Below the pieces are notes generated by a model. It was not told the origin of the DNA. It saw nothing but the letters and a program-made list of their open reading frames with translations, and made no database searches. DNA of 64,000 nt, taken from the IMG/VR virus record IMGVR_UViG_3300028610_001991; one strand, 5' to 3'. Numbering within the stretch: position 1 is the stretch's first letter; the number at the start of each line of letters is the position of its first letter. The translations under genes were made by a program, and so were the position numbers. Below, piece after piece: positions 21,487 to 26,724 of this stretch. The stretch comes from a virus.

Positions 21487-22389
21487 ATGTCAGAAAATGA
21501 AGTAAAAAAAGAGGATGGATCGTCTATACCCATGGATGCAAGAATGGATATACCGGAAGACGCTCCAGGAAATTTAGAGCCGAATATACCTCAGCCTGAG
21601 CCTGAGTTCCTGCGGCCTGGTGTAAATAAGTCTGAAGGAGGTGTACCACACCCTGAGTTCCCGGCAAACGATGAAAATAAACCTGAAGAAAATATACCTC
21701 AGCCTGAGTTTACAAATGAATCAGTAGCAGCTGTACCCCCTCCCCCGCCGCCGCTAATTAATGCAGCAGAAGATAAATTTATACTGGATGAGCCTGTAGT
21801 AATAGACGACTCTGCAGTAACAAATGAATCTGTAGCAGAAGATGAACCTGCAGTAACAGGTGAACCTGTAATAACAGATGAGCCTGCAGTAACAGGTGAA
21901 CCTGTAATAACAGATGAGCCTGCAACAGGAGATGTACCGGCAGCAGGAGATGAGTTGCAAGAAGCTGATGCCCCTATCATGAGTAAAAAACAATTGCGCG
22001 GCCTTGTAAAAGAAGCAGGTATGAAAATCCCAGGATACAAAAAATTATCTGCAGAAAAATTACAGAAGGCAATTCATGAGTATGTTCCTCCGGTAGTAGT
22101 AACAGATGAGCCTACAGCAGATATTAAAGATGAAGTACCTGGCGAAGTACCTATTGAAGATACTGAAGAGGGAGCACCTAATGAAGAGCATAAAGGTAAC
22201 TCAGAAATAAGGCACCTTAAAAAAGTTGTAAGAGCAGAGTTAAGTAAAAATTACGCTGAGCGTATACTTACTGCGTTTGATACAGCACTTAAGGAAGAGA
22301 ATGATGGTTATCCGAAAAAGATATTACTTGGAGCTATAAAACATATTCTTAATCCTAAAATTGCTGCTAGTATTGCCCCTAAACTGTAA
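21487..22389 (+). CDS. acidic Pro/Glu-rich low-complexity protein with internal repeats and a HeH/Rho-N-like helical motif
   Basis: EPAVTGEPVITD repeats, poly-Pro; MSKKQLRGLVKEAGMKIPGYKKLSAEKLQKAI. Confidence 0.65.
   Translation: MSENEVKKEDGSSIPMDARMDIPEDAPGNLEPNIPQPEPEFLRPGVNKSEGGVPHPEFPANDENKPEENIPQPEFTNESVAAVPPPPPPLINAAEDKFILDEPVVIDDSAVTNESVAEDEPAVTGEPVITDEPAVTGEPVITDEPATGDVPAAGDELQEADAPIMSKKQLRGLVKEAGMKIPGYKKLSAEKLQKAIHEYVPPVVVTDEPTADIKDEVPGEVPIEDTEEGAPNEEHKGNSEIRHLKKVVRAELSKNYAERILTAFDTALKEENDGYPKKILLGAIKHILNPKIAASIAPKL
21844..21930 (+). repeat. 36-bp in-frame tandem repeat
   Basis: GA(A/G)CCTGCAGTAACAGGTGAACCTGTAATAACAGAT twice plus a partial third copy. Confidence 0.85.
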
Positions 22390-22643: not shown

Positions 22644-22933
22644 AAAATTATCTAGGCACTAAAGACGTATATAAGCTTTTACGCATTAGTAAATCAGCCA
22701 TTAATAACTACGTAAAAACGGGCGTATTTAAAGCAAAAAAGAAAGATCCTTTTGGAAAATCGATTAGGGTTTATACATGGGAAGATATACGGCAATTAGC
22801 TTTATTAAGGTACGGACCTATAGTTACTAAGGAATTTATAATCAAATGTCCTTACGGTACCTGTAAAAAGCCAATGAAGGTCTCGCTATTATACTTAGCA
22901 TATGAAGAATTAAAAAGTAAAAAGTATATTTAA
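22640..22933 (+). CDS. MerR/excisionase-type HTH DNA-binding protein
   Basis: YLGTKDVYKLLRISKSAINNYVKTGVFKA...RVYTWEDI. Confidence 0.75.
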   Translation: MKNYLGTKDVYKLLRISKSAINNYVKTGVFKAKKKDPFGKSIRVYTWEDIRQLALLRYGPIVTKEFIIKCPYGTCKKPMKVSLLYLAYEELKSKKYI

Positions 22934-23187
22934 TGGAGAGTAATATGGAAGATCTACAAAAACAGATTGAAGATTTAATTAATAGAAATTGTGCTGAAAA
23001 TGAGAGTAATACACCTGATTTTATTTTAGCTGAGTATCTACTCGATTGTTTAAGAACATGGAATAATACAACGAAAAAAAGAGATAAGTGGTACTCAGTT
23101 AATTTAGAGCCTGGTAATAGTAGTTTTGCTTGCTGTACCGACTCTGATAAAGCAGTTAAAAATGCCCATCATGAAGAGGTACACTAA
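22933..23187 (+). CDS. hypothetical phage protein
   Basis: LINRNCAENESNTPDFILAEYL. Confidence 0.55.
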   Translation: MESNMEDLQKQIEDLINRNCAENESNTPDFILAEYLLDCLRTWNNTTKKRDKWYSVNLEPGNSSFACCTDSDKAVKNAHHEEVH

Positions 23188-23189
23188 AA

Positions 23190-23740
23190 TATACACAAGG
23201 GCAACGATACTGACACCCTTGCAAGAAAACGGACAGTAGAGGAAAAACTTCTTCTGGTATCACGGCAGTCGAGAAGCCAAGTAAACAGAGAGGATAAAGG
23301 AGGTTAAACCCTCCTCCACGCGAGAGCCGCGTTAGGATCAACTGGTGGTTGCTGAGGGATTGCGCATAACCGATGTAATTGACTGCCACGTTTTATTATC
23401 TAGTAGAGCGGACGATATCCATCCTTACTAACGTAAGGAGACAGAGGCGAGTTCATAGAAATATGTTCCGGATTTTCTATGCTCTATAAAGATAGAGGCT
23501 TTTGTGGTTTAGCCTACTGTTCAATTAAACACTCCCTCTTCAGAAACGTGGGCTACGTTTTTGGCGGTTTTCAAGGTTTGTCTGTATCAAACCTTGGTTA
23601 TGGAAAAAGGGAGATTTGTAACTTCCTACTATGATGGCTGAGGGTGTCTTGCTGCCGGTGAGGAGTTCTGCAGAATTTCAAGACACGGATGGATCTACTG
23701 GGAAACCGGGGAGAATGCGGCCCGATGCCATGTCTTTATT
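23190..23740 (+). ncRNA. putative large multi-domain structured ncRNA (~550 nt)
   Basis: Intergenic, GC-richer than flanks, more than 12 hand-identified helices including nested long-range pairings (see findings). Confidence 0.75.
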
Positions 23741-23749
23741 TATGTTATT

Positions 23750-23992
23750 ATGATTATAAATAAGAAACGTATCTTTTGGATCTTAATATGTGGTTTGTGG
23801 GTATTTAATATTTATATGCTCTTTTTTAGAAGAACACAGCCGCAAGAACACGTTATTAAGTTTACCAATATTGAGGATTTACGAAAAGAAGATCCTGAGG
23901 ATCCTCGCATAAAAGAATTTGAAGAAATAATTGAAGAATGGAGGCCAATAATTGAATTGAATATTAGAGCATGGATTAAATCAAATGAATGA
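23750..23992 (+). CDS. small single-TM protein
   Basis: IFWILICGLWVFNIYMLFF. Confidence 0.45.
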   Translation: MIINKKRIFWILICGLWVFNIYMLFFRRTQPQEHVIKFTNIEDLRKEDPEDPRIKEFEEIIEEWRPIIELNIRAWIKSNE

Positions 23993-24249: not shown

Positions 24250-24612
24250 ACATTTTTACCCAGTCGTTATAGACGTAGGTTCAAACCAAACTGGGTAAAT
24301 AAAAGCTGTGACTGAATAACTGATGTAGTGTGAGTAAGGTATATACCACCCTGAGGAAATGCAGGGTAAAAAGCTTACTTAGCTTGGTATGGTAGTTCTC
24401 TGTGGAAATTAAGGTATTCTCTTTTATAAATGGACCAATTTATAAAAGAGAAGTCGGCACGTATGGATATACTCTACTCTACCGTGTCCGTGGGGGTAAA
24501 GCCCTTCTCCATTTATTTCTGGGACGTACGCGACTTCCAGAAGGATGACTGAAAATTTAACTGCAGACTTAACTTGTAGGTAAAATGACAATCCTATCGG
24601 CTTTTTATTCTA
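24250..24612 (+). ncRNA. second putative structured ncRNA (~360 nt)
   Basis: Intergenic with multiple helices, including a perfect 15-bp inverted repeat and a closing long-range stem. Confidence 0.6.
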
Positions 24613-24883: not shown

Positions 24884-25162
24884 ATGTCAGAAAACACAAA
24901 CATTTATGTCGGGAATATCCCTTATTCCGCAGACGAAGGATCGTTGAGGGAGCTATTCGTTAAACACGGAGAGGTAGAATCTGTGAAGGTAATAACTGAC
25001 AGAGATTCTGGTAAATCTAAAGGATTTGCCTTTATTAACATGATGGATGAAGAAGGAACTCAATCTGCAATTAGTAATCTACACGAATCTGATATGGACG
25101 GTAGAAAATTGGTTGTAAATATTGCCAGGCCCCGTAAACAGCAGGAAAATAGAAGCTATTAG
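24884..25162 (+). CDS. single-domain RRM RNA-binding protein
   Basis: RNP2 IYVGNI, RNP1 KGFAFINM, DRDSGKSKG, LVVNIARP. Confidence 0.95.
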   Translation: MSENTNIYVGNIPYSADEGSLRELFVKHGEVESVKVITDRDSGKSKGFAFINMMDEEGTQSAISNLHESDMDGRKLVVNIARPRKQQENRSY

Positions 25163-25373
25163 AGGCGGCATTTATCTTTAGGTAAAGAGCTTAAACCCAG
25201 CTATAAGAAATTACTCACACACAAATTTATCAAGGATATATCAAGACAGTATTACCATGTTTGCAAACATAGGTATGTACCCGGGACTATCAGATACAGC
25301 ATCTGTAAGAGTAACTGTATATGATAGTTCCGGCTGTGTTGATATGTATCTCTACATTGAGCCTACTGAATAA
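25163..25373 (+). pseudogene. start-less degenerate paralogue of the 25694-25972 gene
   Basis: Nucleotide alignment by eye with 25701-25920 (CATTTATCTTTA.GTAAAGA, TATGATAGTTCCGG, TCTACATTGAGCCTA); internal deletion. Confidence 0.75.
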
Positions 25374-25497: not shown

Positions 25498-26640
25498 GTG
25501 AGGATTTATTTTATGAGTTGTGACCATCACATAGAAAAGAGAAATTTTATATGTATTAGGGATTCTGCTATTGTTTATAAATGTAGCTGTGGTATGTATG
25601 TTTTTAATTCTACTCCAGAGGGAGTAGTAGCTGAGGATAGTGACCGTATGACAGATACTTTGCGGAATGTGCTGCAGGCAGTAAAAGGTATGTTTGGTGG
25701 GTAGACATTTATCTTTAAGTAAAGAACTGAAACCTGGCTATAAGAAACTTCTCAAGCATAAATTTGTTAAGAACATATCCAGACAATACTACAGTGTTTG
25801 TAAACATAGATATAAATCAGGCACTATTCGTTATAAAGCGGATACATTTTCCGGGATTCGGGTAACCGGTTATGATAGTTCCGGTTGTGTTGGTATGTAT
25901 ATCTACATTGAGCCTAAAGATAAAATTGAAGATGTAAAAAGATTTATAGAAAAAGAATGGAGGGTAGTATGACTGACGAAGAAGAACAAGAAATTGCTTT
26001 TCAAAAAGAATTAGATGATAGTCCACTATCAGGTCCTCCTCAGAGTGTAAAGTGCGGTGGTAGTGGGTCCGGTTTAGCAATAGCAATAATGTTGGGAGGT
26101 ATGGCTTTAATTATATTAAAGCTGTTTTCCTGGTGATATATTCTACCCAGAGACAGGAGTATAAATGTTTAACCCAAACGGTAAACGCAAGATGTTTGAA
26201 TATATGGGAGAAAACTCAGCAGGATCGATAATAGAAGAAAGATGGATTGATGTTGAAATCCTGGACTGTGATGAGGATGAGAAAGTTTATGTAGTTCGAC
26301 ATGAGTATGGTTCAGTGGAGAAGATCGAAAAAAAGAATGGGGATGAGTATCAGTTCTATGATGAGAGGGAGGTGTAGTGGATGATAAATCTATTTTAAAA
26401 AGGGTAATTGATCGGTACTGGATCCCAAAGGTAAATATGTGTGGTGAGTATAAAGGTGTTGTAGGATTCATAGCTATAAGAAGAACTCATAATCCTAAGA
26501 AGTGGAGTTGTTATATAGCAGGGGTACCAGGCAGCGATACTGATAATGATATTTGTTTGGTGGTAGAGCACGGTACTAAGCTGCAGCCTCGTGCTGCGGT
26601 AGCTATGTTTCCGTCTCTTGATATAGCTGATTATGAGTAA
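25498..26640 (+). other. five small hypothetical ORFs (25498-25704, 25694-25972, 25969-26136 with C-terminal TM, 26165-26377, 26377-26640)
   Basis: Overlapping start/stop junctions and RBSs. Confidence 0.55.
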
Positions 26641-26724
26641 GCCAGAATGGTGGAATAGACAGATACGCTTATCTCAAAAGCAGACGGGGGTAAACTCATG
26701 CCGGTTCGAGACCGGCTCCGGGCA
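26641..26724 (+). tRNA. degenerate tRNA-Leu(CAA), probably a pseudogene
   Basis: D arm GTGGAATAGACAGATACGC, loop CTCAAAA, long variable arm, T arm GCCGG-TTCGAGA-CCGGC; mismatches in acceptor and anticodon stems; no CCA. Confidence 0.65.

Follow-up and report, generated by a model that had tools for sequence, protein, structure and literature searches.

The locus and its surroundings

The sequence studied here belongs to an uncultured, A+T-rich phage of ~187 kb, of which we analysed a stretch of 64,000 nucleotides (hereafter the window), with a G+C content of 34.7% (0.347). The window amounts to a replication and recombination module, with genes for SbcCD, an ExoV/Dda-like helicase, a partition ATPase, a clamp-loader/RuvB-like ATPase, thymidylate synthase and UDG, and contains a block of small plus-strand genes between 20.4 and 26.7 kb. 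In this tightly packed block, gene calling leaves three gaps longer than 300 nt. The largest, at 23188-23749, is flanked by two small plus-strand genes, encoding an 84-aa protein (22933-23187) and an 80-aa ORF (23750-23992), respectively; the manA-like gap described below is another (Table 1).

Table 1. Features of the candidate locus and its neighbourhood (positions refer to the window)
Feature	Position	Strand	Description
Upstream gene	22933-23187	+	84 aa, complete; conserved small phage protein family, ENxSNTPDFILAEY motif, phrog_31227
Candidate RNA locus (whole)	23188-23749	.	ORF-free, G+C-rich gap of 562 nt, no Rfam match
Putative domain 1	23222-23398	+	closures AAAACG/CGTTTT and GGCAGTC/GACTGCC; hairpins 23298-23315 and 23318-23332
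Putative domain 2	23399-23712	+	local hairpins robust; long-range closure ambiguous
Downstream ORF	23750-23992	+	80 aa (58 aa according to one source); hydrophobic N-terminus; no Shine-Dalgarno sequence
Second ORF-free gap, manA-like	24296-24607	+	RF01745, sub-threshold; upstream of DUF433 gene
RRM-domain RNA-binding protein gene	24884-25162	+	PF00076, E 4e-20
tRNA-like relic	26641-26724	+	RF00005, 19.3 bits vs. gathering score of 29; ARAGORN silent

Stop codons break all six frames of the gap, the longest stop-to-stop stretches being 78 aa on the minus and 65 aa on the plus strand, and a comparison with Pfam and PHROGs gave no match for any frame. A reassignment of TAG was considered and rejected; this codon is a normal stop in this phage. 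The G+C content of the gap is 0.44-0.48, compared to ~0.30 in its flanks and 0.347 in the window as a whole. Elsewhere in the 64 kb, only three places have values of at least 0.44 over 300 nt, with the tRNA-like relic at one of these. In genomes rich in A+T, intergenic islands of high G+C are a classic sign of structured RNA genes (the GC-IGR approach), and the gap is an island of precisely this type, non-coding and G+C-rich in an A+T-rich genome. We found no promoter or terminator bracketing it and, at its borders, neither a target-site duplication nor terminal inverted repeats such as a mobile element would leave. It also lacks iterons and direct repeats, and the 64-kb window contains no paralogues of the candidate RNA.

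The 84-aa protein encoded upstream has 67 homologues and can be aligned end to end with 31. Since the gene is complete, the gap is not placed within it like an intron. In other phages, the homologues of this gene are directly followed by unrelated genes, without a comparable gap. A search for homologues of the 80-aa downstream ORF returned none except near-identical copies. For another ORF of the region (21487-22389, 300 aa), which is one of the few G+C-rich (0.45) stretches, the only homologue in a set of 5.8 billion proteins is its own strain variant. Its version in the ENA assembly is 288 aa long and 96% identical, in strains that are otherwise near-identical; the two lengths point to an indel between strains, probably in the acidic/lysine-rich repeats.

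The gap matches no known RNA class

The initial annotation of this sequence had described a structured RNA of no standard class and had named Rfam as the place to check this; that it belongs to no standard class is borne out by the lack of any match in Rfam 15. The library holds 4227 families, among which the ROOL model was confirmed to be present and which should also include GOLLD. The whole window gave no match at gathering score, and queries of 1.2 kb and 566 nt, run with permissive filters at E<=10, returned only noise (PVT1_3, SCARNA3 etc.). ARAGORN predicted neither tRNA nor tmRNA in the 64 kb.

Several classes were considered individually and rejected. For ROOL, the region stays below the gathering score of 99.1 bits and is not matched even at E<=10, with the model in the library. 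The conserved 3' domain of GOLLD was not recognised, no Rfam 15 family matching the region at E<=10. OLE, RNase P, tmRNA, SRP and 6S RNAs gave no covariance-model match, and ARAGORN found no tmRNA. A group I or group II intron was discarded on three counts: no intron model matched, the upstream ORF is full length when compared to its 31 homologues, and there is no homologous downstream exon. The lack of an Rfam match, together with the silence of ARAGORN, separates the gap from ROOL, RNase P, tmRNA and group I/II introns as these are modelled. The gap is a non-coding G+C island that lies outside the known families.

Folding of the gap

All 15 pairs of complementary segments claimed in the initial annotation were located where they had been placed. 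Thirteen are exact reverse complements, while TAGTAG/CTACTG and CTGG/CCGG need one G-U pair each. The comparison with dinucleotide-shuffled controls that had been put forward as a check gave the gap an advantage: the plus-strand RNA of the gap has a minimum free energy (MFE) of -171.4 kcal/mol (z -3.05), and not one of 100 shuffles folded as well. The minus strand, however, reaches a z score of -3.08. Since the two values are equal, folding does not pick a strand, and the advantage of 20 kcal/mol seen for the plus strand is an effect of composition, as it is matched by the shuffles of that strand. The earlier argument that G-U pairs favour the plus strand was built on just the two pairs mentioned above and is not supported by z scores of -3.05 vs. 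-3.08, respectively, on the plus and minus strands. Taken separately, putative domain 1 (23222-23398) has z scores of -2.26 (plus) and -2.08 (minus), and putative domain 2 (23399-23712) scores of -3.02 (plus) and -3.64 (minus), the minus strand being the better of the two in this case.

It should be noted where these values lie with respect to the rest of the genome. Across 40 other 551-nt windows of the phage, scanned with 12 shuffles per window, z averaged +0.28 with a standard deviation of 1.25, with values as low as -2.8 and -2.6 in two of them. The adjacent coding control just upstream of the gap had a z score of -1.73. Thus, the gap folds somewhat better than its shuffles, with a signal that is modest, symmetric with respect to strand and situated in the tail of the phage background.

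The robust elements of the predicted fold are mostly local. They comprise the hairpins 23298-23315 and 23318-23332, a set of three in domain 2 (23422-23439, p 0.98; 23454-23481, p 0.97; 23644-23686, p 0.79) and the 7-bp closure of domain 1, in which 23264-23270 pairs with 23381-23387 (GGCAGTC/GACTGCC, p 0.88). A CUGG-GAAA-CCGG hairpin (23698-23709) is found at the 3' end of domain 2. Other proposed helices fare less well in the Boltzmann ensemble. AGGGAG at 23608 favours CUUCCU at 23622 (p 0.94) over its claimed partner, CAAACCTTG is in competition with the pairing of 23592-23601 to 23634-23643 (p 0.80), and TAGTAG has three CTACT sites available as partners. Compared to shuffles, perfect 6-7 bp inverted repeats at spans of 150-400 nt occur at chance level (P 0.15-0.21), nor does the gap exceed background windows in their number. 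The ornate two-domain architecture originally described is therefore not upheld, its long-range closures being at chance level and several of its helices losing out to likelier alternatives. The one excess in the gap concerns local hairpins of 8 bp or more (3 observed vs. 0.25 expected, P 0.005), at a level equalled by 5% of the background windows.

Two smaller features can be recorded here. Each putative domain contains one copy of the motif TG(G/A)T(T/G)GCTGAGGG (23346-23358 and 23632-23644), which could be a recurrent structural module or due to chance. The 12-nt loop of hairpin 23454-23481, the most robust one, holds the self-complementary sequence UCCGGA (23466-23471), which could make a self-kissing contact; with ~8-9 palindromic hexamers expected by chance in 551 nt, we treat this as merely a lead.

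Search for relatives

The gap is identical at the DNA level in two independent assemblies, one an ENA contig (187,021 nt) and the other a Logan run. Gene content is the same in the contigs of 187,060 and 187,021 nt, a third contig (JGI) encodes near-identical proteins, and protein clusters at 90% contain near-identical strains only. Beyond these, nothing similar was recovered. BLASTN with 'distant' settings against 50,697 GenBank phage records gave nothing real at E 1e-5 or at E 10, and BLASTN against the PLSDB plasmids gave nothing. Exact scans of IMG/VR with three 18-19-mers of the RNA had 0 matches in a searched set that did not contain the phage itself, while an 18-mer scan of 596 Gb of genome contigs yielded 12 matches, all due to chance, none of which extends past the seed. 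A single-sequence covariance model of domain 1 (R1), run on ~1.07 Mb of fetched loci and on four complete large phage records, found nothing below E 0.3.

We also gathered ~160 loci by way of synteny anchors in five neighbours, the manA motif, individual contigs and pattern matches. Neither blastn, nhmmer nor the covariance model of domain 1 detected anything similar to the candidate RNA among them. The 300-aa neighbour has no relatives; the ExoV-like helicase led to five distant loci, none with the RNA. The family of the upstream ORF gave 80 IMG/VR loci and three short contigs, with neither a comparable gap nor any similarity; a 39-nt match in one of these loci (L028) was rejected as a chance terminator hairpin. 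For the RRM protein, there was no locus in IMG/VR, and 0 of 58 JGI metagenome loci had the RNA. The manA pattern identified two true manA loci in IMG/VR (L151 and L152), with the target RNA absent nearby.

A related phage, with 88% nucleotide identity over the RRM gene, comes from the same ENA sample (ERZ27251120) and from JGI 3300009788. Both of its contigs (L091 and L092) begin at the position corresponding to 24860 of the window, at the RRM gene and 1.1 kb past the gap. This relative carries an extra gene for a D12-class adenine methyltransferase downstream of the RRM region. Further on, its identity to the window rises to 100% over 25501-25620, a sign of mosaic recombination. Since only identical copies of the gap were found and no homologue, there is no covariation across homologues to be scored. 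The candidate RNA is a singleton, and a class needs more than one member.

A neighbourhood that looks like a small RNA island

The second ORF-free gap of the block (24296-24607) aligns with the manA model (RF01745) over the full model length, with 26.3 bits (gathering score 55.2; E 3.6e-4) and a 173-nt insertion that holds a perfect 15-bp stem. As a positive control, the true manA RNAs in L151 and L152 score 62.5 bits with the same tool. The match is sub-threshold but statistically meaningful, and this gap probably contains a diverged manA-like RNA. At the other end of the block lies the tRNA-like relic, which has a good T-arm (CCGGTTCGAGACCGG) and closes the run of plus-strand genes before convergent minus-strand genes. 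The candidate had initially been compared with large phage RNAs found near tRNA regions. Support for this part of the description is weak, as ARAGORN finds 0 tRNAs in the 64 kb and the only trace is this relic, 2.9 kb downstream and with 19.3 bits. Large RNAs such as ROOL and GOLLD are borne by phages and prophages and are often located near tRNA islands (PMC12286853). With its manA-like RNA, its tRNA-like relic and its RRM gene, the neighbourhood of the gap looks like a small RNA island.

The block also contains decaying sequence. Right after the TAG stop of the RRM gene and in frame with it, positions 25163-25372 hold a start-less copy of the family of ORF 25694-25972, frameshifted in this phage. 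Its counterpart in the 88% relative is intact (L091, 304-590). The copy could be a decaying paralogue or, in the relative, possibly part of a read-through product in which RRM and this domain are fused across the TAG.

Interpretation of the gap

Taken together, the data make the gap a plausible orphan structured-RNA candidate. Of the RNA itself, we infer transcription, strand, ends, fold, partner and function. Our preferred reading, which we put forward tentatively and stop a little short of calling probable, is that the gap encodes a structured non-coding RNA specific to this lineage, or a pair of adjacent ones, which would be transcribed on the plus strand along with the early small genes of the block and act in trans. 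There would be either one RNA or two neighbours of ~175 nt and ~310 nt. We read it on the plus strand by inference, as a segment of a polycistronic transcript of small early-type genes, from which it would be released, or within which it would be stabilised, by its own hairpins. The manA-like RNA, the tRNA-like relics and the RRM protein gene would share a small RNA island with it. The RNA might act as a protein-binding scaffold or decoy, for which the phage's own RRM protein, encoded 1.1 kb downstream, would be the most obvious partner; alternatively, it might associate with itself in the manner of ROOL and GOLLD. A bolder version, in which the gap is the first member of a new class of large ornate RNAs from a marine-sediment phage lineage, joined to the manA-like RNA, the tRNA-like elements and the RRM protein in an RNP module and serving as an RRM-bound scaffold or decoy or assembling with itself like ROOL and GOLLD, appears unlikely to us.

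The presence of a pseudogene in the same block makes decay a serious rival. According to this explanation, the gap would be the non-functional remnant of a foreign gene, of a former tRNA/ncRNA island or of a mobile insertion, with a G+C content inherited from its origin and hairpins that are largely due to chance. The block does have further relics, in the form of the sub-threshold tRNA-like element and the start-less, frameshifted copy of the 25694-25972 ORF family; the long-range helices are at chance level, z is equal on both strands and merely at the edge of the genome background, no homologue exists among the sequences searched, and the homologues of the upstream gene in other phages have no such gap. 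A remnant of this sort has, however, left no protein similarity in any frame and no match to a tRNA or any other RNA family even at E<=10, and it would have to accommodate both the enrichment of local hairpins of 8 bp or more and an MFE that beats 100 of 100 shuffles. Phage genomes, moreover, usually purge 560 nt of junk fast. On balance, we find decay rather unlikely, if worth keeping in mind. A related question is whether the structured sequence might act in cis, as a long spacer in a polycistronic transcript that controls the processing, stability or translation of its neighbours (e.g. the ORF at 23750). Bacterial and phage leaders and riboswitches described to date are several times shorter than 560 nt, no riboswitch or leader family matches, and the downstream ORF is itself uncertain (80 or 58 aa, without homologues). 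These points lead us to see a cis element as improbable, even with a gap that has no promoter or terminator of its own, an ORF that begins right behind the structured part without a Shine-Dalgarno sequence, and a manA-like neighbour whose type is cis-regulatory in the Rfam classification.

The remaining explanations concern known classes and DNA-level function. A size of ~550 nt and a phage setting similar to that of ROOL would fit a highly diverged member of a known large class (ROOL, GOLLD, OLE or an ORF-less intron) that has drifted beyond recognition by covariance models. We hold this to be very unlikely, given that 0 of the 4227 Rfam families, ROOL among them, match the 566-nt query at E<=10 with permissive filters, that there is no intact tRNA gene and that the upstream gene is complete and uninterrupted by an intron. 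There is, finally, only a slim chance that the gap functions as double-stranded DNA, for example as a replication origin, an array of protein-binding sites or a recombination site. Perfect palindromes are expected to give the same fold signal on both strands, as is seen here, and the window is a replication and recombination module, but iterons and direct repeats are lacking, origins are usually A+T-rich whereas the gap is the G+C maximum, and its loops, at 4-27 nt, suit RNA hairpins better than protein-binding palindromes. The trans-acting structured RNA remains the reading that we prefer. The candidate is at present a single sequence with modest statistics, whose value is that of a lead to be taken up again once relatives of the phage have been sequenced.

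Comparison with known phage RNAs

The candidate resembles ROOL (RF03087, 574 model positions) in its size of ~550-580 nt, its location in a phage, its many hairpins, its lack of an associated protein-coding function and the tRNA-like sequence in its region. It differs from ROOL in having no covariance-model match, no intact tRNA island nearby, no family of homologues, no covariation and no sign of multimers. The manA motif (RF01745) is a structured RNA of marine phages, of ~190 nt and classed as cis-regulatory. Its probable diverged copy, 550 nt downstream in the next gap, would place it in the same genomic island as the candidate. The candidate gap itself, on the other hand, has no similarity to manA, and the true manA loci (L151 and L152) have no counterpart of the candidate nearby.

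Phage structured RNAs without a known function also include the stable RNA species 1 and 2 (rnaC/rnaD) from the tRNA region of T4, of ~120-140 nt, which are co-transcribed and processed with functional tRNAs in a cluster of tRNAs and small genes of a large lytic phage. In size, the candidate exceeds these fourfold, and the tRNA-like elements in its vicinity are degenerate.

GOLLD is a large RNA of phages and prophages, of unknown function, that is also found in marine metagenomes and often lies beside tRNAs (PMC12286853). Its length is often above 800 nt and its 3' domain is universally conserved, whereas the candidate gap matches no Rfam family. Both ROOL and GOLLD have recently been shown to form RNA-only nanocages, their function being still unknown (PMC12286853). 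Each independent class from a new phage lineage would help to show which features are common to the large RNAs of phages. If our reading is true, a class of this known kind, i.e. a large phage structured RNA, would be added from an uncultured, A+T-rich phage of ~187 kb. In that event, the nearby manA-like RNA and RRM gene would hint at an RNA-protein partnership of a sort that the known classes lack.
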